Positions 1 to 56,859 of a stretch of 64,000 nt of DNA are shown here, one piece after another. The first letter of the stretch is position 1; the number at the start of each line of letters is the position of its first letter. The translations under genes were made by a program, and so were the position numbers. Source of the stretch: an uncultured Chloroflexia bacterium (GTDB lineage: Bacteria; Chloroflexota; Limnocylindria; QHBO01); the NCBI GenBank assembly GCA_963773695.1, contig CAVZCE010000007.1, positions 71,325 to 135,324 of the forward strand, in the 5' to 3' direction. The notes under the pieces were generated by a model that was given only the letters and a program-made list of their open reading frames with translations, was not told where the DNA came from and made no database searches.

Positions 1-282
1 CAGGCGCCGCCCACCAGCGGTGCCAGGTCCGCCGCGGCACGCTCGGCGTCCACCGTCGCCAGGACGAGGCCGCGGGGCGACTCGCTCCAGTCGTCCATCG
101 GGCGCGGCAGGAGGCCCCGGCTCACGCCCTCCGGGAGCTCGTCGGGGACCGGCGCGCCACGCAGGCCCCACCACAGGATTCGCGGCTCGGGGCCGGGCTC
201 GGCGTAGAGCCACTGCGGGAAAAGCTGGGCGCCGCCCTCGCGGAGGATCCGGTTCAGGATCCGCTGCTCGGGGACCGCCATT
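1..282 (-). CDS. hypothetical protein, N-terminal part only (gene starts near 282 and runs off the window start)
   Basis: Open minus-strand frame beginning with ATG at 280-282 (MAVPEQRILNRIL...); no recognisable domain; codon usage consistent with a GC-rich coding region. Confidence 0.3.
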
Positions 283-341
283 CGGACGTGACTGATCTCA
301 GGCATGAGCTCACAGAGGATAGCGGCCCGAGCCCGGGCAGG

Positions 342-1151
342 TCAGAGGCGGGTGAGGATCTCGCGCCGCTTGGCACGGTATTCCCGCTCCGTCACCAGGC
401 CGTCCTCGAGGAGCGCTGCCAGCTGGGCGAGGGCACCATGGATCTCGCCACGGACGGGCGGCGGATCTGCGTCGAGATCCGCCGACGCCGGTGCCGCCTC
501 GGCGACGGCCTTCGTGCCGCTGTCCGCGTCGGTCCCCACGTGGCCCGGGAAACCGAGGTCTCCGGCCGTCGCGCGCACCGGTTCGCCGTCCTCGGAGTAG
601 AGCCGGGTGACACGGCGGGAGTTGACGACGAGGACCGGCAGACGCCGATGGAAGGCGGGCGCCGCGTGGTGGACGAGCTCGACCTCGGTGACCGGCACGA
701 AGAGCCGGCTGGAGCGCAGAAGGTAGTCCCCCACCTCGGCGCCCGGCCGAACGTGGATCCGTCCGCGGACCTCGTAGGGCCCGATCTCGAAATGGATGCC
801 GCAGATCCGCCGGTGCAGCCTCAGGTGCCGGCCGACCGGCAGCTCGGGCGGGACCGCGAAGAGGATCTCGTCTGCCTGCAGGCGGACGCGGGCGGGGTCG
901 CGGGAAGGCTCGGCGAGGCTGCCGGCCGTCTCGGAGGTCACCTCCTCGACGGGGGCGATCAGCTCGATCTCAGCCCCGCGATTCATCCAGTCGCTCGTCC
1001 GCTCCCCCTCCGGAGCGATCCAGCCGCGCGTACGAGAGGTGGCGGTCGTGACCTCGAGCTCGGCGAGCACCGGCCAGACCGGGGTGTCCGCCTCCTGGAC
1101 GAGAGGAGGAGCCTCCTCCTCAGCGTGCCGTCGCCATGCCAGCGTGGTCAT
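342..1151 (-). CDS. SHOCT-domain protein (uncharacterised N-terminal region plus C-terminal SHOCT motif)
   Basis: 269-aa ORF; C-terminus LAQLAALLEDGLVTEREYRAKRREIL matches the SHOCT short C-terminal domain pattern; the six-frame ORF 288..1199 on the opposite strand looks like an antisense artefact. Confidence 0.5.
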   Translation of the reverse strand: MTTLAWRRHAEEEAPPLVQEADTPVWPVLAELEVTTATSRTRGWIAPEGERTSDWMNRGAEIELIAPVEEVTSETAGSLAEPSRDPARVRLQADEILFAVPPELPVGRHLRLHRRICGIHFEIGPYEVRGRIHVRPGAEVGDYLLRSSRLFVPVTEVELVHHAAPAFHRRLPVLVVNSRRVTRLYSEDGEPVRATAGDLGFPGHVGTDADSGTKAVAEAAPASADLDADPPPVRGEIHGALAQLAALLEDGLVTEREYRAKRREILTRL

Positions 1152-5239: not shown

Positions 5240-8632
<3,393 letters not shown>

Positions 8633-8661
8633 CTACGGACGGACGCCACCCCGGTCCCGGG

Positions 8662-9153
8662 CTACTCCTCGTCGGGTTCCGCCTCCCCGGTGAACCAGGC
8701 GCGCAGGTGCGCGGTGTGCTCGGCATAGTGGTCGGGGCCGTCGTAGCGGATCACCTGCTCCACCGTGTGGCCGTTGCCGAGCGCCAGGTCGAGCAGCCCG
8801 GGGTCGAGCGCGGAGAGCGCGGTGCGGAAGCGATCGGCGGCCCCGGACTCACGGTCGGCGGCATCCGCCAGCGTCAGGGAGGCGCCCTCGCGAAGGACCT
8901 CGGCGTTCATGGCATCGGTCCGGCTGGTGTCGTAGTCGTACTCGGAACCGCGCCCCGCGGCGGCCAGGGCCAGGGCGGCGGCGCCGTGGTCGGACCAGAA
9001 GGCCACGTGCGCCACGAGGTCGCGGGCGCTCCATGCGTCGAGGAGTCCGGGGGTCGTGGCGAGATCCGGATCGACGTCGGCGAGGGCCGCCCTGAACGCA
9101 CCGCGGGCACGCTCCAGCTCCGCCAGGAGCGCTGCTCGCCGCTCGAGGTTCAT
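8662..9153 (-). CDS. DinB/YfiT-like four-helix-bundle protein (mycothiol maleylpyruvate isomerase N-terminal-domain-like)
   Basis: 164 aa; WSARDLVAHVAFW motif; ATGA overlap with the upstream paralog. Confidence 0.55.
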   Translation of the reverse strand: MNLERRAALLAELERARGAFRAALADVDPDLATTPGLLDAWSARDLVAHVAFWSDHGAAALALAAAGRGSEYDYDTSRTDAMNAEVLREGASLTLADAADRESGAADRFRTALSALDPGLLDLALGNGHTVEQVIRYDGPDHYAEHTAHLRAWFTGEAEPDEE

Positions 9154-9629
9154 CTCGTGCGGTCCTTCAGCGCGCGGAGCTCGGCGGCGTGGCCGCGGTA
9201 GTGATCGGCGCCGTCGTCGCGGATCACCTGCTCGACGGTGTCGCCGTACCCGACCGGCTCCTCGAGCCATGCGGGGTCCATGCTGCGCACCCGCGCCACG
9301 AGCGCCCCGAAGGCCGCCTCCTCCCGGGCGCTGGCGGTGGCGAGGTCCGATTCCCGCGCGACGCGGGCCACCACGGCGTTGCGCTCCTCCACGTCCAGGC
9401 CCGCCTCCCCGAACTCGTCGGCCCGGCCCTGTGCGGCAAGATGGAGCGCCTCCGCGGCATGTCCGGCCCAGTAGGCCAGGTGGGCGATGAGCTCGCGCAC
9501 GCCCCACTCTCCCACGAGGGACCGGGTGTTGAGCTGCGCCACGTCCAGGGTCGCGAACTCGGCGCGGAACTCGTCGCGGGCGGCGACGAGGTCAGCCGCC
9601 AAAGCCTCCGGGATCCCGGGCTCCGCCAT
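9150..9629 (-). CDS. DinB/YfiT-like four-helix-bundle protein, tandem paralog
   Basis: 160 aa; WGVRELIAHLAYW motif; about 35-40% identical to the downstream copy by eye. Confidence 0.55.
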   Translation of the reverse strand: MAEPGIPEALAADLVAARDEFRAEFATLDVAQLNTRSLVGEWGVRELIAHLAYWAGHAAEALHLAAQGRADEFGEAGLDVEERNAVVARVARESDLATASAREEAAFGALVARVRSMDPAWLEEPVGYGDTVEQVIRDDGADHYRGHAAELRALKDRTR

Positions 9630-9688
9630 GGCTTCCACCTCCTGCCGATCCGGGTGCCATCCAGTCGAGACCGATGCTCGCGAGGAGC

Positions 9689-12220
9689 CTACTCCCGCTC
9701 CAGGCCGGCGTAGGTCGCGATCAGCCGCTTGACCCCCTGTCCCACGAAGGCCACGGTCACCTCCTCGTCGCCCTTGACGAGCTGGGAGGAGACGACGATC
9801 CCCTCCCCGAATCGCCGATGCCGCACGCGGTCGCCGGCGCGCCACGCGAGCGCTCCCTCCGCGGCAGCGCCTGCGCCGGCGGGCTGCGGCGCGGCACCGC
9901 CGAAGGCGCCGCTCCCCAGGTCGACCTCCGATCCGGCATAGCCGGTCGCTCCCGCCACGCGCTCGCGCGCGTCATCCAGGGCGCGACCGGCGCGGCCCGC
10001 GCGGGACGCCGGCGGGCCGGACAGGTCGGGCAGGCTCACCGGCCGCAACGGCTCGTTGCGCGGCGAGCGATGGGGAGCGCGGTAGCCGCCGGGCAGCCAG
10101 TCGCCGTCGTCGTCGACCCCCCGCCGCTCCCCCCAGCCGCGCCGGAAGGGCGCCGAGGCGCGCTCCGCGGAGAGCAGCTCCTCCGGCAGCTCCGACAGGA
10201 ACCGCGACGGCTCGGTCATGGCACCCACGCCCCACGTGGATCGGTGATGGGCGTGGACGAGGTAGAGCCGATCCTTGGCCCGCGTCATCCCCACGTACGC
10301 GAGCCGGCGCTCCTCCTCCAGCTCCCGCTCGTCCTCCAGGGCACGGCGGTGGGGCAGGAGCCCTTCCTCGAGCCCCACGATGAAGACCACCGGGAACTCC
10401 AGGCCCTTGGCCGCGTGGAGCGTGATCAGGGTGACCCGGTCCGGGCGGTCCTCGAGGGTGTCCTGGTCGCTGACCAGCGCCACCTCCTCGAGGAACCGCG
10501 CCAGCCCTTCGGGCGGTGCGATCTCGTCGAACTCGGCGGCGTGGTTGCGCAGCTCCATGACGTTCGCCCAGCGGTCCGTCCCCTCGTCGGTCCCGTCGTT
10601 CACGGACTCCGCCAGCCCCGAACGCTCCAGGGCCGCGTCGAACACCGCCGACGGCGCCTCGGCGCGGGCCATCTCCATGAGCGGCCGCATGATCGCGGCA
10701 AACACCGCCAGCGAGGCACGGGCCCGCAGAGCCAGGTTCGGGTTGTCCCCGGATGCCTCGACCGCCTCCCAGAGCGTGGTGGCGTGCGACTCCGCCCACG
10801 CCCGCAGCTCCTGGAGCGTCCGCTCCCCGATCCCGCGCGCCGGGACGTTGATGACCCGCTCCAGCGCCACGCGGTCCGCGGGATTGCGCGCCAGCCGGAC
10901 GTAGCCCAGGGCGTCCTTCACCTCGCGCCGCTCGTAGAAGCGGGTGCCGCCCACGAGCTGGTACGGGATCCCGAAGCGCATGAACGCCTCCTCCAGGACC
11001 CGGCTCTGGGCGTTGATGCGGTAGGTCACGGCGACCTCGCCATAGCGGAGGGCGCCGTCCTCGTCATCGGCCCGGCTGGTGAGCAGACGGCTCATGGAGC
11101 CCGACGCCGCCCCGCCCGTCAGCCGCTCCACCTGGCGGGCGACGAACTCCGCCTCCTCGTACTCGTTGTAGGCGTCGAAGACCGTGATGCTCGTCCCGGA
11201 TCCCCGGTCCGTCCAAAGCTTCTTGTCCTTGCGTCCCTCGTTGCGGCTCACGACGGCGTGCGCGGCATCCAGGATGGTCTGCGTGGAGCGGTAGTTCTGC
11301 TCGAGCTTCACCACGCGGGCGTCGGGATAGTCGGCCTCGAAATCGAGGATGTTGCGCAGGTCCGCTCCGCGCCACGAGTAGATGCTCTGGTCGTCGTCAC
11401 CCACCACGGCCAGGTTGTGGTGCTTTGCAGCGAGGTGGCGGCAGATGAGGTACTGGGCCCGGTTCGTGTCCTGGTATTCGTCCACCAGGATCTGCTGCCA
11501 TCGGTCCTGGTACTTCGCCAGCACATCGGGATGCTGCTCGAAGAGGAGGACGACCTTCATCAGCAGGTCGTCGAAGTCGACCGCGTCGTCCTCCGCAAGC
11601 TGGGCCTGGTAGGCCTCGTAGACCCGGGCGGCGGTCTCCTCGTAGAAGTTGGCCGCCTGCCTGCGCGCCGTGGCGACATCGGCGAGCTCGTCCTTGCGCT
11701 GGCCGATCCAGGCGAGCATGCCCGCAGGGCTGAAGCGCTTCTCGTCGAGGTCCAGGCGGCGCAGCACCTGCTTGACGAGGGCGACCTGGTCCGCCCGGTC
11801 GTAGATGGTGAAGCTGCGTGTCAGGCCGATGGCGTTGCCATCCCGTCGCAGGATGCGAGCGCAGATGGCGTGGAAGGTCCCGATGGTGGCCTCCCGTGCG
11901 GCCTCCTCTCCGATCAGGGCCGCGATCCGCTCCCGCATCTCGTTCGCCGCCTTGTTCGTGAAGGTGACGGCCACGAGCTGCCAGGGCTTGAAACCAGCGG
12001 CCACGAGATACGCGACCCGATGGGCCAGGACGCGCGTCTTGCCGCTTCCGGCCCCGGCCAGGATGAGGAGCGGACCCTTGATGTGCTCGACCGCCTCGCG
12101 CTGCGGCGGGTTCAGGCGGGCGAGGATCGCCTCCAGGCGGGCGGCGCGGGCGGCATCACGGCTCGCCGCAGCGGGCTGCGGGACGGCAGGGGAGGGGGTG
12201 GTCTGGCGCTTGGCAGGCAT
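9689..12220 (-). CDS. pcrA: ATP-dependent DNA helicase PcrA/UvrD (superfamily 1)
   Basis: 843 aa; Walker A AGAGSGKTRVLAHR, helicase motifs (TFTNKAANEM, VDEYQDTN, VGDDDQSIYSWRGA) and a C-terminal Tudor-like tail; lies upstream of ligA as in Firmicute pcrA-ligA operons. Confidence 0.85.
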   Translation of the reverse strand: MPAKRQTTPSPAVPQPAAASRDAARAARLEAILARLNPPQREAVEHIKGPLLILAGAGSGKTRVLAHRVAYLVAAGFKPWQLVAVTFTNKAANEMRERIAALIGEEAAREATIGTFHAICARILRRDGNAIGLTRSFTIYDRADQVALVKQVLRRLDLDEKRFSPAGMLAWIGQRKDELADVATARRQAANFYEETAARVYEAYQAQLAEDDAVDFDDLLMKVVLLFEQHPDVLAKYQDRWQQILVDEYQDTNRAQYLICRHLAAKHHNLAVVGDDDQSIYSWRGADLRNILDFEADYPDARVVKLEQNYRSTQTILDAAHAVVSRNEGRKDKKLWTDRGSGTSITVFDAYNEYEEAEFVARQVERLTGGAASGSMSRLLTSRADDEDGALRYGEVAVTYRINAQSRVLEEAFMRFGIPYQLVGGTRFYERREVKDALGYVRLARNPADRVALERVINVPARGIGERTLQELRAWAESHATTLWEAVEASGDNPNLALRARASLAVFAAIMRPLMEMARAEAPSAVFDAALERSGLAESVNDGTDEGTDRWANVMELRNHAAEFDEIAPPEGLARFLEEVALVSDQDTLEDRPDRVTLITLHAAKGLEFPVVFIVGLEEGLLPHRRALEDERELEEERRLAYVGMTRAKDRLYLVHAHHRSTWGVGAMTEPSRFLSELPEELLSAERASAPFRRGWGERRGVDDDGDWLPGGYRAPHRSPRNEPLRPVSLPDLSGPPASRAGRAGRALDDARERVAGATGYAGSEVDLGSGAFGGAAPQPAGAGAAAEGALAWRAGDRVRHRRFGEGIVVSSQLVKGDEEVTVAFVGQGVKRLIATYAGLERE

Positions 12221-25581: not shown

Positions 25582-25752
25582 CGCCATCGCGACTCCATCC
25601 CGTTCGGCGGGGAAGGCGATCCCGAACCTCGCGGTCGACCCGTCCCACCGGGTGATGACCTTCGGCCCGCCAAATCCGTGCGCTCTGGTGCATGAGTGCG
25701 CACATGCGGAGGTTCACCATGGACCCAGGTCAATCCGCGATGCAGGAGCCTC

Positions 25753-48939: not shown

Positions 48940-50190
48940 CTAGTCGGCCTTGCGGCGGAGGAAGCTGGGGATGTCGAGGTCGGTCTCGCCGTACGACGGG
49001 CGCTCGAGGCTGGGACGCACCGGGAGCGGCTGCCGCTCGCTGACGCGCGACTCCCGCGGCTCCGCCTGGGACGGCCGCGCAAACGGCGACTCCGTCCCCA
49101 TCTGCTCCTCGAGTGCCGCTCGCTCGGAGCGCTCGCGCTCGATCTCGGCGAGGATCTCTCGGCTCCGCTCGTCGAGGGACGTCTCCATCCCCCTCGAGGC
49201 CTCGGCCGCCGCCTGGCGCCCGGCCTGCTTGACGGGCTTCGCGGCGTCGAAGCCGGTTGCGATGACGGTCACCTTGACCTCGTCCCGCATCCGGTCGTCG
49301 ATCACGGTGCCGAAGATGATGTTTGCCTCCGGATCGGCCGCCTCCTTGATCACCTCGGCCGCCTCGTTCACCTCGAAGAGGCCGAGGTCGCTGCCGCCGG
49401 TGACGTTGAAGAGGATGCCGCGGGCACCCTGGATGTTCACCTCGAGGAGCGGGCTCATGACGGCCGCGCGGGCGGCCTCGACGGCCCGGTTCTCGCCGGT
49501 TGCGGTGCCGATGCCCATCATCGAGCTGCCGGCGTCGCGCATGATCGTCTTGACGTCGGCGAAGTCGAGGTTGATGAGGCCCGGAACGGTGATCAGGTCG
49601 CTGATCCCCTGCACGCCCTGGCGCAGGACGTCGTCCACCACCCGGAACGCGTCGAGGATGGAGGTCTTCTTGTCGACCACCTCGCGCAGCCGGTCATTCG
49701 GGATGGTGATCAGGGTGTCGACCTTCTCCTTGAGCTGCTCGCTGTACTGCTCGGCCACGAGCTTGCGGCGGACACCCTCGAAGCTGAACGGCTTGGTGAT
49801 GACGCCAACGGTGAGGGCGCCGAGGTCCTTGGCGATCTCGGCGATGACCGGAGCTGCGCCCGACCCGGTGCCACCGCCCATGCCGGCGGTGATGAAGATC
49901 ATGTCCGCGTCCTTGAGCGCTTCGTAGATCTTCTCCGAGTCCTCCTCCGCCGCGCGCTGCCCGATGATCGGGTCCGCGCCCGCGCCGAGGCCGCGGGTGA
50001 GCTTGTCTCCCACGCGGATCTTATGGGGCGCATCGCTCTGGAGGAGGGCCTGCGCGTCGGTGTTCACCGCGATGAACTCGACGCCCATCATCTCGGCGCG
50101 GATCATCCGGTTCACGGCGTTCGAGCCGCCGCCGCCGACGCCGATGACCTTGATCAATGCGAAGTGTTCTGCGTCCGAACGGAGCGGCAT
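48940..50190 (-). CDS. ftsZ: cell-division GTPase FtsZ
   Basis: 416 aa; tubulin signature GGGTGSG; C-terminal conserved peptide DIPSFLRRK. Confidence 0.95.
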
Positions 50191-50387
50191 CTTCCGGGTT
50201 CTCCTGCGCGGTATGGTGGCATGAACCCGTCTCGCGCGGGTTTGACCGATTCTACCGGCCCGCCGACGCTGCCGCTGGCGATTTTTCCACAGGTCCTCCC
50301 GAAGTTATCCACACCCGCGCCGGTCGGCGGTGGACGAGCGCAGCGCCTCTCCACAGGCTGTCGAGGCGACAGGCGAAGGGCGGCTGC

Positions 50388-53300
50388 TCAGGGTGTCGTG
50401 TCGGACGCTGCACCATCCCCGCCCGCCGAGCGGATCGGGAGCCGAACCGTGAAGGTGGTGCCCTCGCCGGGCTGCGAGTCGACCGAGATCGTTCCCTCGT
50501 GCGCCTCCGCGATGGATCGCGCAATGAAGAGGCCGAGCCCCAACCCTTCGGTTGGGCCCGTCGCGTCGCCCGTGGCGCCGGGTGCCCAGAGGGCCTCCGC
50601 GAGGCCCGGCGGAAGCCCGGGTCCGTGGTCGCTGACGCTGATCTCCGCCGTCCCGCGGCGACGGGCGACCCGCACGTCAATCGTCGGCGAGCTCGACGCG
50701 TGGCGAATGGCGTTCGAGATCAGGTTGAGCACGACCTGCTGGAGACGGTCCGAATCGGCGGCGAGGCGAATGGGACGTGACGGCCGATGCAGGACGATCT
50801 CCTGCCTGCCGGCGAGCGGCCGTGACATGACGACCGCCTCCTCCACGACGTCCACCAGGTCGACCTCCCGGAAGCTGAAGCGCAGCCGTCCGCTCCGCAG
50901 CCGGTTCGCATCGAACAGGTCCGACACGAGCGAGGAGAAGCGCTGGACCTGCGAGAGCGCACGCTCCGCATAGCGGTGCGACTTGCCGCGCCGGCTGCCG
51001 CGAAGCTCGCGCTCGAGGAGCTCCAGGTAGGCGGTCACCCCGGTGAGCGGGCGTGCGCAGCTCGTGGCTGAGCATGGCCACGAACTCGTCCTGCAGATGC
51101 TGCAGGCTGGTTGCGGTGACGTCGCGGATGACCGTCACCGCCCCGCCGGCGGGATCGTCGTCGAGGGCACGCCCGCGGGCCTCGTACCAGTGGCGCTCGC
51201 CCGAGGCCTCGGTGCCGGTGAAGCGCACGAGGAAGGTTCCCTCGCGCACCGGCAGCCGCCATGGCGCCCGATCCGGCGGGATCTCCTCCCCCGCCTCGTC
51301 CTCCAGCCGCACCTCGACGGCGGAGCCGAAGGTTCTGTCGAAGACACCGTTCGACAGGACCGGCGCTCCGGTCGGGTCGGTGACGACCACCGCATCGGCC
51401 ATGGACAGGAGGACGCCTTCGAGGCGCGCCCGCTCCGATTCGCTCAGCTCCCGCTGGTGCTCCACCGAGATGGCCAGGTCCTGCAGCTCGGTGCTGCGAG
51501 CCTCCAGGTCGTCGTTCGTGGTGTTGAGCTCCTCCACCGTGGCCTGCAGCTCCTCGTTGAGGGTCTCCAGCTCCTCGTTCGTCGCCTGCAGCTCCTCGTT
51601 GAGGGTCTCGACCTCCTCGGTTGCCGACTGGACCTCCTCGTTGGAGACGACGAGGTCGTCGTTCTGGCTCCTGAGGTCGGCGTTCACCATCGTCAGCTCG
51701 GCATTCGCCTCGCGCAGCCGGCGCGCGGCCTCGGTCATGCGCCTGATCTGCACCGCGAGCCGCTCGGCACGATCCGTCTGGGAGGATGACGCCTGCCGCA
51801 GCCCGCTAAGGTCGGCGTGCTCTCGGGTCACGTCGCGCACGAGGATGGCGACCGTCTCGGCGGTGCTCGTCCCGTCTCCCTGGCGGTAGCAGGTCACCTC
51901 GAGGGACATCAGCTCGCCGCTCGTGCTGTCGGCGACGGGGATGTCCCACATGCGACGCGCGGGCTCACCGCGAAACGCGTCGTCGATCTCGCGTCGCAGC
52001 TCGTTGTTCGGCACGCCCTCCACGAGGTGGACGAGGTCCTGCCCGATGGCCGCGCCGTGGACCCCCAGCAGGTTGCGGGCGGCGGTGTTGATGAGGGCGA
52101 TGTCGTACTTGCGGTCCACCACCACGATGCCCACCGGCAGCTGCATCACGATGCGATCCGCTCGCGCCGCGTGCGTCCGCGCCCGGTCGAGCTCGGCCGC
52201 CCCCCGGCTGGGGGCGATCCCGCGCGCCAGGGAGGCACGTGGCGTGGTGGGCGGCGGCAGGACCGTCATTGGTCGGAGCGGCTCACTGCCCATCCGGCCG
52301 GACGGTCGGCCCACGCGCGTCCCCCGCCGGCGGTAGATCTTCAGGCGGGGGTCCGCCAGGACGAAGGCATCGGCGAGCGGAGTGGTCGTCTCCGACTTGC
52401 CCAGGACGAGGTAGCCGCCATCCCGGAGGGCGAAGGCGAAGAGCTGCAGGGCCCGTCGCTGCAGCTCCGCGGTGAAGTAGATCAGGACGTTCCGGCAGAC
52501 CGTGAGGTCGATGCGCGGGAACGGCGCGCGCTGCGCCAGATCGTGCTGGCCGAAGGCGATGAGCGTCCGGAGTGCGGGGGCTACCTCGTACTGGCCGTCG
52601 CGCTCGAGGAAGTGGCGCTGGCGCAGCGCCTCGGGCAGCCGCGCGAGGGCCGCGGCGGGATAGATGCCGCGCCGGGCAAACGCGATCGCCTCCCCGTCGA
52701 CGTCGGTGGCGAAGATCCGCACGCGCAGATCTCCGCCGCCGGCCTCGCGTGCCTCCGTGGCCACGATCGCCAGCGAGTACGCCTCCTCGCCCGTCGCACA
52801 GCCGGCCGACCAGATGCGGACCTCGCCGCTGTGCTCGCCGGCGTGCGCGAAGAGCTGGGGAAGGAGCTGGGCGCGGAGGTGCTCGTAGAGGTCGGGGTCC
52901 CGGAAGAACTCCGTGACGTTGATGAGGAAGCTGTTCGCCAGCCGCTGCAGCTCCTCCGGGTGGCCGTGCGCGTAGCGGACGTACTCCCGTAATCCATCCT
53001 GGCCGGTCGCGACGATGCGGCGCTGGAGGCGTCGCAGCACCGTTGGCCGCTTGTACTGTGCGAAGTCGATTCCGGTGCTCTCGCGAACCGCCTCCAGGAA
53101 CGTGGTGAGGACTCCCTCCTCGTCGGAGCGCCGCGGCACGAACGTCCCGGCGAGGAGATCCTGCAGGAGGGGGCCGATCGCCTTAAGGTCGGCCACGATG
53201 TCAACGGTTGTCGGCGAGAGCGAGAGCGGCATGGCGGGGTAGCTCGCCGTCTCGGGATTCTGGATCACCACCGTTCCGCCGACCGCCTTGACGTGGCGGG

Positions 53301-53751
53301 CTCCCGCGGCGCCATCGGATCCTGCGCCGGTGAGGATGACGGCGATCAGCCCCTCGCCGTAGGCTTCGGCGGCGGAGTCCAGGGCTCCGTCGACCGACGG
53401 CCGCGGACTCGTCCTCGGCGCATCGCCGGGGCCCTGACGCACCCTCCGGGCACGAATCTCGTGGTCGCCGATGACGACCTCGCGGTCGGCGGGGATGACG
53501 AAGATGACCCCCGGATCGAGCCGCTCGCGGGCGGCGACGATCCTGATCGGAAGCCGGGTGCGACGCTGGAGGATCTGCGCAAGGTGGCTCTCGCGCCGCG
53601 GATCGAGGTGCTGGACGACGACGATCGGCGCCCGAAAGTCGAGGGGCAGCGTCGATACGAGCTCGCCGAGTGCATCGATTCCACCCGCCGAGGAACCGAT
53701 GACGACGAGGTGCTCGACGTCGTCCTGATCAGTCGATGAGGAAAGATTCAT
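50388..53751 (-). CDS. CheB methylesterase / CheR methyltransferase / PAS / coiled-coil / histidine kinase hybrid; reading frame broken by an apparent 1-nt insertion near 51048
   Basis: Frame A (53751 down to about 51040): CheB catalytic domain without REC (VVIGSSAGGIDAL...), CheR (FFRDP...SAGCATGEEAYSLA), PAS, NEEL heptad repeats, then H-box SHELRTP; frame B (51038..50388): the rest of HisKA plus HATPase_c (MTAYLELLE...GLGLGLFIARSIAEAHEGTISVDSQPGEGTTFTV). Deleting the base at 51048 restores SHELRTPLTGVTAYLELLE. Confidence 0.7.
51519..51654 (-). repeat. tandem roughly 42-nt coding repeats giving NEEL(Q/E)xxNEEL heptads in the CheBR-HK hybrid
   Basis: Direct repeats of ctcctcgttgagggtctc(c/g)a(g/c)ctcctcg...gcctgcag encode ...ETLNEELQATNEELETLNEELQATVEELNTTNDDLE... 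Confidence 0.5.
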
Positions 53752-53823
53752 GCCACCCGCCTCCGCCCGTGTTCCCCGTCCGCGCGGCATGGTCGCATTC
53801 TTGCACACGCCCGCACGGCTGCA

Positions 53824-54816
53824 ATGGAACAGCCATCCGCCGCGGGGCGGGTCGTCGTCGTGGGGGGATCTGCCGGCTCGATCGAGCCGCTCAGGACGAT
53901 CCTCGGCGGACTCCCGCCGGACTTCCCGGCAGCGCTCCTCGTCGTCGTCCACGGCTCGTCGGGGACCGGCTCGCTGCCGCGCGTCCTGGCGACCGCCGGG
54001 TCCCTCCCGGCCGAGTTCGCCGCCGACGGTACGGCCATCCGTCCGGGTCGCGTCTTCGTGGGAGTCCCGGACCGACACCTGATCCTCCAGGACGGCGTCA
54101 TGCGTCTCAGTCCCGGGGCGCGCGTGAACCACGCCCGGCCGGCGGTTGACCCGCTCTTCCAGAGCGCCGCCCTGGCGCACGGTCCGGGGGTCATCGGCGT
54201 CGTGCTCTCCGGGAGCCTCGACGACGGGAGCGCGGGGCTTGCGGCGATCAGGCGACACGGGGGCATCGCGATCGTCCAGGACCCCGACGAAGCGACCTTC
54301 TCGGGAATGCCGCGCTCCGCCGCGGTCCACGCGGACCCCGCCCACGTCCTGCCGGCCGGCGAGATCCCCGACCTCCTCGTGCGGATCGTCTCGGCGGCCC
54401 CGACCGACCGCGACGGGGCCCTCGCCTTCCGTTGCCGGATCGGGCACAGCTACACGGCACGCCATTTGCTGGACGCACAGGGCGACGAGGTGGAGAATGG
54501 TCTCTGGCAGGCGTTTCGGGCGCTCGAGGAGCAGGCCGAATTGGCACGCACCTTGGGGAACACCGCCAGGATCGAGGGCCGTACGAGCGCGGCGAATCGG
54601 TTCGACGAGCAGGAACGCGTTGCACGGAAACGGGCCGAGATGATCCGAGCGATCCTTGAACAGGCCGCGTGCGTTGCCGCCGCGGCATCCCGCGACCTCC
54701 GGCAGGGAGGGAATGGCGAATGGCACCTGACGATCGCGAGGGCGCAGTGCCGGCCGCGCGGCTCGTCGTCGTGGACGACGACCAGGCGACCCTCGACCTC
54801 ATGCACGAGATCCTGA
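53824..54816 (+). CDS. CheB-type protein-glutamate methylesterase catalytic domain, stand-alone (no receiver domain), with a C-terminal helical extension
   Basis: 330-aa ORF; GGSAGS...VVVHGS...RPAVDPLFQSAA...VLSGSLDDGSAG...GGIAIVQDP matches the CheB_methylest fold; 3' end uncertain because it overlaps the next gene by about 97 nt. Confidence 0.7.
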   Translation: MEQPSAAGRVVVVGGSAGSIEPLRTILGGLPPDFPAALLVVVHGSSGTGSLPRVLATAGSLPAEFAADGTAIRPGRVFVGVPDRHLILQDGVMRLSPGARVNHARPAVDPLFQSAALAHGPGVIGVVLSGSLDDGSAGLAAIRRHGGIAIVQDPDEATFSGMPRSAAVHADPAHVLPAGEIPDLLVRIVSAAPTDRDGALAFRCRIGHSYTARHLLDAQGDEVENGLWQAFRALEEQAELARTLGNTARIEGRTSAANRFDEQERVARKRAEMIRAILEQAACVAAAASRDLRQGGNGEWHLTIARAQCRPRGSSSWTTTRRPSTSCTRS

Positions 54817-55217
54817 GCGGGGATGGCTACGACGTCCGCTGCTTGCCGTCGGTGTCGGCGGACCTCCGCGAGATCGTCGCCGCCGCGCCCCATCTGCTGA
54901 TCGTGGACCTGCTGCTGAGCGACGAGGGCCGGGACCTGTCGGGATGGGACCTGGTACGCCTCGTCAAGTCGCATCGCGCGCTCACCCGTGTCCAGATCCT
55001 GGTCGTCTCCGCGGACTACCCGACCCTGCGCAGCCACATCGCGGAGGCGGCGGAGATGGACGGCGTGCGGCTCCTGACCAAGCCGTTCTCTCTCGACAGC
55101 CTCTCGGTGCTCGTCCGCGATGCACTGCGCGAGGGAGGGTGGCTCGAGCCCGAGCCGGCGCCGCTGGTCGCGCGGATCCCGCCCCCGCCGCCTCCGCGCT
55201 CCAGGCGGGCATCGTGA
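54720..55217 (+). CDS. single-domain response regulator (CheY-like receiver only)
   Basis: 165 aa; LVVVDDDQATLDLMHEILSGDGYDV...LLIVDLLL(S/D)...KP, a receiver-domain pattern with the phospho-acceptor Asp in LIVDLLL. Confidence 0.75.
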   Translation: MAPDDREGAVPAARLVVVDDDQATLDLMHEILSGDGYDVRCLPSVSADLREIVAAAPHLLIVDLLLSDEGRDLSGWDLVRLVKSHRALTRVQILVVSADYPTLRSHIAEAAEMDGVRLLTKPFSLDSLSVLVRDALREGGWLEPEPAPLVARIPPPPPPRSRRAS

Positions 55218-55594
55218 ACCGGCGGTCGCAGGCCAGGGCTGTCCGGGCGCTCATCGTGGAGCAGCGCCGGGTGACCCTCCGAACCCGGACGATCAGCGTC
55301 ACCCTGGTCTCCGCGCTCGACGACTATGCCAGGCAGACCGCCGCGGCGCAGCCGGACGACGAGGCGCAGCTCCACCTGCGGCGCCTGTGGTGCGAACGCG
55401 CCCTGCAGATGCTGCAGGACGTGCGCGCCAGCAGCATGCGTGCCCGAGAGGTGGCGCGGACCGTCGCGGCGGCGATCGACGCGCGGGGCGATGTCGTCGA
55501 CCTGAGCGAGCTGGAGGACGCGAGCCGCGAGGCGGACGTCTCGGTCGAGCGCGCGGAGAAGACCGCGCAGGAGTGGCTCCGGCTGGTCAGCTGA
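55214..55594 (+). CDS. hypothetical alpha-helical protein, translationally coupled to the response regulator (GTGA overlap)
   Basis: 126 aa from GTG at 55214; no recognisable domain; ends 26 nt before the convergent ftsA stop. Confidence 0.4.
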   Translation: MNRRSQARAVRALIVEQRRVTLRTRTISVTLVSALDDYARQTAAAQPDDEAQLHLRRLWCERALQMLQDVRASSMRAREVARTVAAAIDARGDVVDLSELEDASREADVSVERAEKTAQEWLRLVS

Positions 55595-55620
55595 CCGAGC
55601 CGGGACGGGTCGGCGAGGGG

Positions 55621-56859
55621 TCAGCCGGGGAAGAGACCCCGGAACCAGTCCACGACGCGGCCGACCCCCGAACCCAGCGACGGTCCCGGGGTGTAGCCGA
55701 TCGGCTCGTCGCCGAGGTGCTCGGCGCCCCAGAGCAGCAGACCGATGGGGGTCGAGAAGGCGGGATTCGAGAGCTGGTCCATCAGCCCTCCCACGCCCTG
55801 GGGCGACCCGATGCGCACCGGCATGTTCAGGACCTCCCGAGCGAGCTCGGCGGCTCCGGCAAGGCGCGCGCCACCGCCGGTGAGCACCGCGCCGGCGGGG
55901 AGCATACCCGCGTGGCCGGAGCGCTTCACCTCCTCCGCGATGAGCGAGTAGATCTCCCCCATGCGCGCCTCGATCACCTCCGACAGGCGCCGGCGCTGGA
56001 TCGTCTGCCCGGCCTCTTCGCCCAGGACCGCCACGCTGAGCAGCTCCTCCGGCTGGACGTCCGCGAGGTTGGCGGTCCCGTGCTTGATCTTGATCTCCTC
56101 GGCGAGGTTCAGGCTCGTGCGCAGGCCGATCGCCACGTCATTCGTGACGTTGATCCCGCCGACCGGCAGGACCGCGGAATGGTAGATGGCGCCATCGACG
56201 AAGATCGCGATGTCCGTGGTCCCGCCGCCGATATCGGCCACGAGGACCCCCAGGTCCTTCTCCGTGTCGGTGAGGACCGCCTCGGCCGCGGCCAGCGAGC
56301 CGATCACCAGCTCGTCGATCTGGACGCTCGCGCTGGTGATGCACTTCGTCAGGTTCTGCACCGACGTCGCGGCGCCGGCGACGATGTGGGTCTCCACCTC
56401 GAGGCGCACGGCGCTCATCCCCAGCGGATCCTTGATCCCGTCCTGCCCGTCGACGATGAAGCCGCGCGGGATGACGTGGAGCAGCTCCCGGTTCGAGGGG
56501 ACCTGGATGGCCTTGGCGGCATCGGTCGCGCGCGCGACATCCTCGCGGCTCACCTCGCGCTTGTGCCCGGAGACCGCGACCACGCCCCGGCTGTTCTGGC
56601 TCGTGATGTGGCTCCCGCCCACGCTGACGAAGGCGGAGCTGATCTTGTAGCCGGAGAGGCGCTCGGCCTTCTCGATGCTCTGGGCGACCGAGTTCACGGT
56701 CTGGTCGATGTTGGCGACCATGCCCTTCTTCATCCCGACCGACGGACCGATGCCGTAGCCGATGATGTTGATGTCGCCGGTGCGGCCGACCTCGCCGATG
56801 AGCGTCGTCACCTTGGTCGTGCCGGCGTCGATGCCGACGAGGACCGTTTCCCTGTCCAA
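55621..56859 (-). CDS. ftsA: cell-division protein FtsA (actin-like ATPase)
   Basis: 412 aa; MDRETVLVGIDAGTTKV..., DIGGGTTDIAIF, GGGARL motifs. Confidence 0.9.
   Translation of the reverse strand: MDRETVLVGIDAGTTKVTTLIGEVGRTGDINIIGYGIGPSVGMKKGMVANIDQTVNSVAQSIEKAERLSGYKISSAFVSVGGSHITSQNSRGVVAVSGHKREVSREDVARATDAAKAIQVPSNRELLHVIPRGFIVDGQDGIKDPLGMSAVRLEVETHIVAGAATSVQNLTKCITSASVQIDELVIGSLAAAEAVLTDTEKDLGVLVADIGGGTTDIAIFVDGAIYHSAVLPVGGINVTNDVAIGLRTSLNLAEEIKIKHGTANLADVQPEELLSVAVLGEEAGQTIQRRRLSEVIEARMGEIYSLIAEEVKRSGHAGMLPAGAVLTGGGARLAGAAELAREVLNMPVRIGSPQGVGGLMDQLSNPAFSTPIGLLLWGAEHLGDEPIGYTPGPSLGSGVGRVVDWFRGLFPG

Follow-up and report, generated by a model that had tools for sequence, protein, structure and literature searches.

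Why does the open reading frame (ORF) of a CheB-type methylesterase run for 97 nt into that of a receiver read in a different frame? The question is raised by a locus in a 64,000-nucleotide stretch of DNA (hereafter, the window) from a Candidatus Limnocylindria genome (Chloroflexota), where an accessory four-gene signalling cassette lies between ftsZ and ftsA (Table 1). This cassette consists of a minus-strand sensor kinase gene and a divergent three-gene operon encoding the esterase, the receiver and a small protein predicted to be a three-helix bundle; no chemoreceptor, CheA or CheW genes were seen in it, and a consensus scan of positions 53500-55800 found no promoters or terminators. An initial annotation, whose coordinates for the three ORFs of the operon are correct on the window sequence as given and whose domain calls are borne out by Pfam (CheB_methylest and Response_reg), saw here a split CheB and offered three origins for the overlap: a recoding event, a mis-called 3' end or a recent gene fission. 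The answer that we favour, with a probability of about 85%, is that a one-base frameshift in the esterase gene creates the overlap, which reflects neither a split CheB nor recoding.

Table 1. Features of the cassette, with positions counted from the first base of the window
Feature	Position	Strand	Details
Sensor kinase	50388..53751	-	CheB esterase, CheR_N/CheR, PAS, EE-rich coiled coil, HisKA, HATPase; +1 frameshift
Kinase lesion, C-run with one extra base	51049..51051	-	CCC on the coding strand (GGG on +); splits the gene into two ORFs
REC-less CheB-type methylesterase ORF	53824..54816	+	330 aa; Pfam CheB_methylest (PF01339) at residues 11-184, E 7.6e-45
In-frame deletion junction	54402..54403	+	~55-65 codons missing relative to relatives
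C-run with one extra base	54689..54691	+	CCC in the window, CC in L006
Single-domain response regulator	54720..55217	+	165 aa; Pfam Response_reg (PF00072) E 8.8e-11, 42.4 bits against a cut-off of 30.2
Restored esterase stop TGA	54728..54730	+	Used once the extra C is removed; product 301 aa
126-aa helical protein	55214..55594	+	GTG start overlaps the receiver TGA (GTGA); no Pfam or NCBIfam match

The key evidence is an independent assembly of the same locus, Logan contig L006 (run ERR11718636), which aligns with the window over 1,621 nt at 99.8% identity (two mismatches, one gap). In this contig, the C-run that precedes the overlap is one base shorter, the two genes are called at 2..247 and 237..734, and the esterase call ends at a TGA that the window reads through. 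The 97-nt overlap (70 nt if the receiver starts at GTG 54747) thus arises because the extra C pushes the esterase frame past this stop, and with CC at 54689-54691 it shrinks to at most 11 nt, which is the overlap called in L006. The restored TGA aligns with the stop codons of the related loci L001 and L004 (alignment A2), and leaves the esterase with a tail of 23 aa, compared with 22-30 aa in relatives. Base composition tells the same story. Between 54720 and 54813, where the shifted esterase frame reads across the receiver start and the first 32 receiver codons, GC at its three codon positions is 0.35/0.87/0.88, the reverse of the normal coding pattern of the esterase body (0.76/0.54/0.87), so that the esterase ORF has no independent coding signal over its last ~30 codons; it is the receiver frame that has the coding pattern over this interval (0.88/0.35/0.87). 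A Viterbi frame plot of the whole window shows only two frame breaks, one in the esterase tail and the other at a lesion in the kinase gene. An oddity on this plot at 25614-25721 was considered as a frameshift and rejected, being an ordinary gene boundary.

Elsewhere, the esterase and receiver genes are separated by 1 nt (L002), 13 nt (L001) or 15 nt (L004), or share an ATGA overlap (L032), and the receiver is in the same frame as the esterase in L004, in the +1 frame in L001 and L002, and in the -1 frame in L032. Two tightly abutting genes are the ancestral, normal state, whatever the origin of the extra C. Of the three origins first proposed for the overlap, the mis-called 3' end therefore stands, the stop having been moved by a one-base frameshift, while recoding and recent fission do not. 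One independent assembly and four syntenic loci sufficed to settle the point, and the case carries a caution of wider relevance: a genome of 71% GC such as this one has few off-frame stops, and one base gained or lost in a short run of C is enough to create a long gene overlap that resembles recoding or gene fission.

The esterase ORF differs from its relatives in another respect, which is best understood from its domain architecture. Residues 1-193 form the esterase domain, which matches PF01339 over the full length of the profile and the CheB catalytic domains in the PDB by sequence (E 1e-25); S16, H43 and D134, which we take to be the catalytic Ser-His-Asp triad of CheB, are invariant in the family alignment. 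The C-terminal extension of ~140 aa comprises the last strand of a Zn ribbon and a helical hairpin (residues 194-288), followed by the frameshifted tail (residues 289-330). The initial annotation had asked whether this extension has homologues, which it does: residues 1-278 align with relatives at 40-60% identity, and the 1,220 homologues found, mostly of ~340 aa, cover 82% of the query including the extension, with CPxC...CxxGH and W..RALEE as conserved motifs. The family of the window esterase is widespread and numbers more than 1,000 receiver-less (REC-less) proteins, built from an esterase, a Zn ribbon and a helical hairpin. In the AlphaFold model of one homologue (P0007, pLDDT 90.8), which superposes on 1chd and 3sft (Foldseek; rmsd 1.5 Å, target TM-score 0.89-0.92), an esterase domain is followed by a linker, a three-stranded ribbon and two long helices (265-303 and 307-360, mostly with pLDDT >90). 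When the C-terminal domain of P0007 alone served as query, in a search constrained by the word index, only two matches came back. On the layout of this model, the in-frame deletion in the window copy takes out the disordered linker and the first two strands of the Zn ribbon, including the CPxCGG motif, and the protein runs from ...VSAAP directly into TDRDGALAFRCRIGH (alignments A1 and A7). While CPxC is present in at least 90% of the family, the window esterase has only the second half of the four-ligand ribbon CPxC...CxxGH (C204, G207 and H208). The hairpin is kept, with W228, R232, L234, E236 and L240 occupying invariant or near-invariant columns (A1 and A7).

The divergent kinase gene is damaged as well. 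Its product matches CheR (2.9e-51), CheB_methylest (6.3e-47), PAS_4 (5e-10), HATPase_c (1.2e-28) and part of HisKA in Pfam, and its coiled coil contains four EExx[AST][AST] sites spaced by 14, 14 and 7 residues, in a segment that is nearly identical in L001 and L032. At the lesion, the window reads ACG-CCC-GCT, compared with ACG-CCG-YTG in L001 and L032 (alignment A10), and the frame switches at 51047/51048, directly after the H-box (SHELRTP). Intact homologues are encoded in both of these loci (1133 aa for the longest ORF in L001, 1126 aa in L032). A real frameshift in the kinase gene would leave this organism with an inactive module.

What produced these lesions is a separate matter. The extra C in the esterase gene is either a long-read consensus error or a real, very recent frameshift allele, and the lesions of the cassette taken together (+1 C in the kinase, +1 C in the esterase and loss of half of the Zn ribbon) are the result of either consensus error or decay. 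Real pseudogenisation is the alternative that survives best; it bears only on how the lesions arose, does not conflict with the one-base frameshift explanation, and in our view is a serious possibility although somewhat the less probable one. It would mean that both extra Cs and the Zn-ribbon deletion are genuine, that the module is under relaxed selection, and that only the receiver and the helical protein are maintained. The only two frame-breaking lesions in 64 kb both fall in this 5-kb cassette, which is unexpected for random error and, together with an esterase that is short of ~60 residues including CPxC, fits relaxed selection. Relatives offer further examples of loss, since the L032 esterase has lost its entire C-terminal extension, L005 lacks the kinase and the esterase but keeps the receiver and the helical protein, and nothing is inserted between ftsA and ftsZ in the three nearest species representatives, whose FtsA is 94-95% identical. 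Moreover, the Logan haplotype has two A/G substitutions within 155 nt, hence more than one allele exists, which argues for strain variation rather than pure homopolymer error. The nature of the lesions speaks against decay. Both are +1 C in a short C-run, the one in the esterase lies past the last conserved helix and alters only the variable tail, the esterase and kinase bodies keep a normal coding codon-position GC, the receiver gene of L001 has a -1 lesion (six C where seven are expected), and many related genomes of the lineage are Nanopore-only assemblies polished once with Medaka (PMC12313526). C-run lesions such as those in the window esterase, the kinase and the L001 receiver form a pattern typical of long-read consensus errors. 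Exact-protein look-ups with FtsZ, the esterase, the C-terminal ORF of the kinase and the receiver yielded no independent contig spanning either the kinase lesion or the deletion in the esterase gene.

Coming back to the overlap itself, a frameshift between two abutting genes has to be weighed against the proposal that a canonical CheB has recently undergone fission, with the receiver gene as the detached regulatory domain of the esterase. That the two genes are side by side and translationally coupled is in keeping with fission, which nevertheless has very little chance of being correct. The order esterase-receiver is the reverse of that in CheB, the esterase scores 115.9 and 101.4 bits against the canonical NCBIfam CheB profiles (NF001965 / NF009206) whose cut-offs are 342 and 293, and it has a C-terminal domain of its own, common to its REC-less family. 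In each of the six loci examined, the receiver has its own gene downstream of the esterase gene, and at the 45 metagenome loci of the esterase family with at least 3 kb of flank, a receiver of the window type is present at only three and missing at 42. Conversely, it exists without the esterase in eight related Limnocylindria genomes, including L005, L026, L037, L039, L043, L062 and L083. The profiles and PDB entries that match it best are those of generic regulators (NtrX, PhoB, KdpE and MtrA), with no CheY or CheB family among them. The notion of a split CheB does not outlast the reversed order, the REC-less esterase family and these generic matches.

What accompanies the esterase instead is a CheR gene, found nearby at 35 of the 45 loci (median distance 0.9 kb), and an EE coiled-coil segment (30/45); in two loci from other lineages, L087 and L088, the esterase adjoins CheB and CheR-PAS genes. 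The conserved neighbour of the family is a CheR-PAS-coiled-coil gene, not a receiver, and in the window this neighbour is the divergent CheB-CheR-PAS kinase. This has implications beyond the present locus: a large family labelled only "CheB" is receiver-less and travels with CheR-PAS-coiled-coil proteins rather than with chemoreceptors, which raises the question of whether CheR-PAS/esterase modules methylate their own kinases. No described function of REC-less CheB or fused CheB/CheR proteins came to light in literature searches.

The feeblest of the alternatives, programmed -1 ribosomal frameshifting in the overlap to make an esterase-receiver fusion (a CheB of permuted order) beside the separate proteins, agrees with the length of the overlap and with the -1 position of the receiver frame relative to the esterase frame, but can be dismissed. 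From 54560 to 54814 (the initial annotation had pointed to 54700-54730), the esterase frame contains no slippery heptamer of the form X_XXY_YYZ. Junctions and frames vary among four related loci, in which the esterase ends before the receiver begins or overlaps it by no more than 4 nt, with each of the three frame relations represented. In addition, the overlap disappears in L006, and the 120 best esterase homologues carry PF01339 only and include no esterase-receiver fusion.

With the esterase and receiver established as distinct genes, the last two members of the operon can be considered in their own right. The receiver, which starts either at ATG 54720 (GGGAGGG 8 nt upstream) or at GTG 54747 (GAGGG 4 nt upstream), is a generic single-domain regulator. 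Its top NCBIfam matches are NtrX, NahK/ErcS, PhoB and NtrC, and its phospho-acceptor set is intact, D19/D20, D63, S97 and K121 corresponding to D12/D13, D57, T87 and K109 of CheY (alignment A9). Its peculiarities are four extra residues that follow the phospho-acceptor Asp and a C-terminal tail rich in Pro. The 126-aa protein is indeed tightly coupled to it and predicted to be all-helical, as the initial annotation had noted, and in relatives its gene follows the receiver gene at a gap of 1 nt to 13 nt. AlphaFold predicts helices at residues 3-44, 49-90 and 98-125 (mean pLDDT 80), which would form a three-helix bundle. A fold search in the PDB gave no match below E 0.1 and, above it, only generic helical bundles and spectrin repeats. 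The family is small and lineage-restricted, with 30 cluster representatives at E<=1e-3 among 1.84 billion, and a GTDB scan with the family pattern gave no matches. The receiver and the helical protein are a separate, Limnocylindria-specific pair.

Two roles for the 126-aa protein were considered and rejected: (i) that of a histidine phosphotransfer (Hpt) protein, since its conserved columns contain no invariant His (A4 and A5) and the prediction is of three helices, not four, and (ii) that of a methyl-accepting substrate, since the N-terminal ALVREQRRAT recalls the chemoreceptor methylation consensus, yet the motif is not conserved. [EQ][EQ]xx[ASTG][ASTG] occurs at the conserved N-terminal position in nine of 37 members of the family, and the window copy has none.

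By synteny, L001 and L032 have the complete cassette, whereas L002-L004 have parts of it. The ftsA-ftsZ site is without insert in 44 of 76 species representatives and contains unrelated genes in the others (a solute-binding protein with cyclase-like genes, an amine-oxidase-like gene, NTF2-like genes and lipoproteins). The inserts being variable and unrelated, the site is a hotspot and not a functional clue, and a division role read from this position was rejected.

How might such a cassette work? Gene neighbourhood suggests a mechanism that, taken as a whole, we put forward only tentatively and consider rather doubtful. The CheR and CheB domains of the kinase would methylate and demethylate glutamates in its own coiled coil, thereby setting kinase output, and the stand-alone esterase may add a further demethylase or deamidase activity towards the same type of kinase partner, a role suggested by the fact that its gene adjoins a CheR-PAS-coiled-coil gene across phyla. 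The kinase would then phosphorylate the adjacent receiver, and the helical protein could be the binding partner or the output of the latter. Self-methylation of this kind would resemble what is seen in Bacillus cereus, where RsbM, a CheR-type enzyme, methylates the signalling helix of the sensor kinase RsbK (PMC4574943). A far more ambitious version would be a chemotaxis-independent, methylation-adapted two-component system, with a self-tuning kinase and a Zn-ribbon esterase, and a single-domain regulator and its three-helix partner as the output; given the location of the cassette between ftsA and ftsZ, this output would target the Limnocylindria division machinery. We find this version highly improbable.

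Comparison with known systems helps to place the parts of the cassette. Stand-alone single-domain response regulators share the CheY-like fold and all phospho-acceptor residues with the window receiver, which differs from them in the insertion following the Asp, in its Pro-rich tail, in showing no specific similarity to CheY, and in having a small three-helix protein as its partner in part of the lineage, a combination that none of the libraries searched describes. Canonical CheB, made of REC and methylesterase (PDB 1A2O, 1CHD and 3SFT), has the same catalytic fold, Ser/His/Asp positions and PF01339 domain as the window esterase, which in contrast is without N-terminal receiver, falls far below the NCBIfam CheB cut-offs, belongs to a family with a C-terminal Zn ribbon and a long helical hairpin, and has a CheR-PAS-coiled-coil kinase as genomic partner rather than a chemoreceptor/CheA/CheW cluster. 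Closer to it are the REC-less CPxC...CxxGH ribbon/hairpin esterases (annotated as 'chemotaxis protein CheB'), with which it shares the CxxGH half, the W..RALEE helix and a CheR-containing neighbour, but from which it departs by the absence of the linker and CPxC half of the ribbon and by its frameshifted tail. The kinase has the CheB-CheR-PAS-coiled-coil order of the CheB/CheR-PAS fusions (the type of KEGG K13924), genes that adjoin the esterase family in other phyla, and is unlike them in being also fused to HisKA-HATPase and broken by a +1 frameshift. Lastly, RsbK/RsbM offers a precedent, outside chemotaxis, for a histidine kinase that is tuned by glutamate methylation (PMC4574943). RsbM, however, is an orphan methyltransferase distinct from the kinase and without an esterase partner, whereas in the cassette the kinase carries CheR and CheB as fused domains, has an additional esterase gene beside it, and would be methylated.

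All three plus-strand ORFs of the initial annotation lie exactly where it had placed them (see the table) on the window sequence, which has a GC content of 71%, and the 97-nt overlap it described between the esterase and receiver ORFs is present in the sequence as given; should the receiver start at its in-frame GTG (54747) instead, the two would share 70 nt. The three genes are real, and they are correctly delimited except for the last ~29 codons of the esterase; a frameshift of a single base created the unusual overlap.

Coordinates of the genes and lesions in the window
Feature	Position	Strand	Details
Sensor kinase	50388-53751	-	divergent from esterase; CheB, CheR, PAS, coiled coil, HisKA, HATPase
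+1 frameshift, extra C in C-run	51049-51051	- (kinase)	directly after H-box SHELRTP
CheB-type esterase ORF	53824..54816	+	330 aa; Pfam CheB_methylest residues 11-184, E 7.6e-45
In-frame deletion, ~55-65 codons	~54402/54403	+ (esterase)	relative to all relatives
Receiver ORF	54720..55217	+	165 aa; Pfam Response_reg E 8.8e-11
Helical-protein ORF	55214..55594	+	126 aa; GTG start overlaps receiver TGA

The key evidence comes from an independent assembly of the locus, a 1,621-nt Logan contig (L006, run ERR11718636) found by exact-protein look-up of the 126-aa product. Over window 54483-56104 the contig differs by a single gap and two A/G mismatches. The C-run at 54689-54691 reads CCC in the window vs CC in L006. 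With CC, the esterase frame stops at TGA 54728-54730, giving a product of 301 aa, and the overlap with ATG 54720 falls to 11 nt (zero if the receiver starts at GTG 54747). That CC is the normal state is supported by four further points: (i) the homologues in the related loci L001 and L004 stop at the position aligned with this TGA, (ii) the tail past the last conserved helix is 23 residues with CC and 22-30 in relatives, vs 51 in the window, (iii) over 54720-54813 the esterase frame has a codon-position GC of 0.35/0.87/0.88 and the receiver frame one of 0.88/0.35/0.87 (genuine genes here show ~0.77/0.5/0.9) and (iv) the junction in four syntenic loci is a 1-nt (L002), 13-nt (L001) or 15-nt (L004) gap or an ATGA overlap (L032). 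A Viterbi frame model passes from the esterase to the receiver frame at 54746/54747. Both A/G differences (54630 and 54784, A in the window and G in L006) are no more than 155 nt from the C-run indel, and the remaining ~1,300 nt of the alignment are identical. The change in the esterase is synonymous, and that in the receiver turns Gln into Arg; their cause may be strain heterogeneity at this spot or a local consensus problem.

The kinase gene carries a lesion of the same type, confirmed against L001 and L032, which splits it into a 216-aa ORF and a 1349-aa ORF (at its longest, with a spurious extension at the N terminus). As for the origin of these lesions, sequencing or consensus error is judged somewhat the more likely: many genomes of the lineage are Nanopore-only and polished once with Medaka (PMC12313526), which fits homopolymer consensus errors. 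Real decay, with a genuine allele in a module that the organism can do without, comes somewhat behind, and draws on the fact that the only two clear frame breaks found across 64 kb both lie in the 5-kb cassette (the kinase and the three divergent genes), and that the Logan haplotype differs by two substitutions as well. Recoding, which had been proposed as a cause of the overlap, is out, because the esterase frame holds no X_XXY_YYZ slippery heptamer over 54560-54814 and the relative reading frame of the esterase and receiver genes varies among relatives. A recently split CheB is ruled out by the order of the genes (esterase then receiver, the reverse of CheB), a score of 116 bits against the NCBIfam CheB model (cut-off 342) and membership in a large esterase family.

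What the initial annotation read as a "split CheB" is in fact a member of a REC-less CheB-like family that has a conserved C-terminal extension of its own and partners with CheR-containing kinases. At E 1e-5, this family counts 1,220 esterase homologues, mostly ~340 aa long, which align over 82% of the query. The extension (~140 residues beyond the CheB_methylest match), for which homologues were to be sought, does have them and is aligned across the family, in which the motif CPxCGG...FRCRVGH and, after it, a W..RALEE helix are conserved. For P0007, the closest relative of full length, the AlphaFold model (pLDDT 90.8, pTM 0.84) places the esterase domain at 1-195; a disordered linker leads from there to a ribbon of three strands (231-257), and a pair of long antiparallel helices (265-303, 307-360) completes the protein. 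Only the esterase part of the model has solved counterparts, the CheB catalytic domains (rmsd 1.5 A). In the window, the in-frame deletion takes out the linker together with the half of the Zn ribbon that carries CPxCGG; a search for independent contigs across the deletion point retrieved none. The esterase is a damaged member of a known, uncharacterised kind. In L032 (12142-12900, minus strand), the esterase is ~250 aa, lacks the Zn-ribbon/hairpin extension altogether and ends in the ATGA overlap with the receiver gene, the rest of the cassette being complete, so this clade either can do without the extension or is losing it.

The receiver keeps the residues aligned to CheY D12/D13, D57, T87 (Ser here) and K109, and its best matches are generic regulators, which argues against a chemotaxis-type (CheB-derived) domain. 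In L001, a JGI contig, the receiver gene has a one-base deletion by a poly-C run (~7235-7245, GAC-CCCCCCAG), with six Cs where other loci have seven bases, because of which it is called as 67-aa and 108-aa ORFs. The 126-aa product matches no Pfam or NCBIfam profile. Its family is very small (of 1.84 billion representatives, 30 reach E<=1e-3) and shows neither a conserved His nor a conserved methylation motif; the protein is predicted to form a three-helix bundle (pLDDT 80), for which a fold search gave no informative match. Its gene lies close behind the receiver gene at every locus having it (4-nt overlap to 13-nt gap), and the protein may, as a low-confidence guess, bind the receiver or serve as its output.

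FtsA, at 80-95% identity, places the lineage in Candidatus Limnocylindria (Chloroflexota), and the cassette sits between ftsZ and ftsA (insert region 50190-55621). Among 76 species representatives carrying both genes (loci among L007-L086), the gap is <=300 nt, with no insert, in 44, including the three closest relatives; a receiver is found at the site in seven, accompanied by the helical protein in three of these (L026, L032 and L043) and by the whole four-gene cassette only in L032. Outside this set, the full cassette occurs in L001 and the window, and L005 has the receiver and helical protein without kinase or esterase. Other inserts are a lone receiver, solute-binding protein and cyclase-like genes (L058, L073, L076), an amine-oxidase-like gene (L038), lipoproteins (L029, L060) and NTF2-like proteins (L033, L037, L043, L067, L084). 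Since unrelated genes occupy the same site in other genomes, the stretch between ftsA and ftsZ is a hotspot for insertions in Limnocylindria, and the cassette's location there does not speak for a role in division.

The association of the esterase family with a CheB-CheR-PAS-type gene is general. In 45 metagenome esterase loci with >=3 kb flank, a CheR gene is nearby in 35 (median distance 0.9 kb), the EE-rich coiled-coil segment described below in 30, a second CheB in 14 and a window-like receiver in only three. The fusion state of the partner varies: in other lineages, CheB and CheR-PAS are two genes downstream of the esterase (L087, 6001-9636) or a single CheB-CheR-PAS gene with a PAS-kinase-receiver gene behind it (L088, Candidatus Eisenbacteria, 6001-11802), and in the window all are fused to the kinase. 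The coiled coil of the window kinase, NEEVQSATEEVETLNEELQATNEELETLNEELQATVEELNTTN (~51370-51670, residues ~695-740), contains four EExx[AST][AST] half-sites with a heptad-compatible spacing of 14, 14 and 7 residues, and is nearly identical in L001 and L032, in kinases that are overall 62-69% identical to that of the window. We infer that these half-sites are candidate self-methylation sites, on which the kinase's own CheR and CheB domains and the stand-alone esterase would act. A published precedent is RsbK, a kinase whose signalling helix is methylated by the CheR-type RsbM (PMC4574943).
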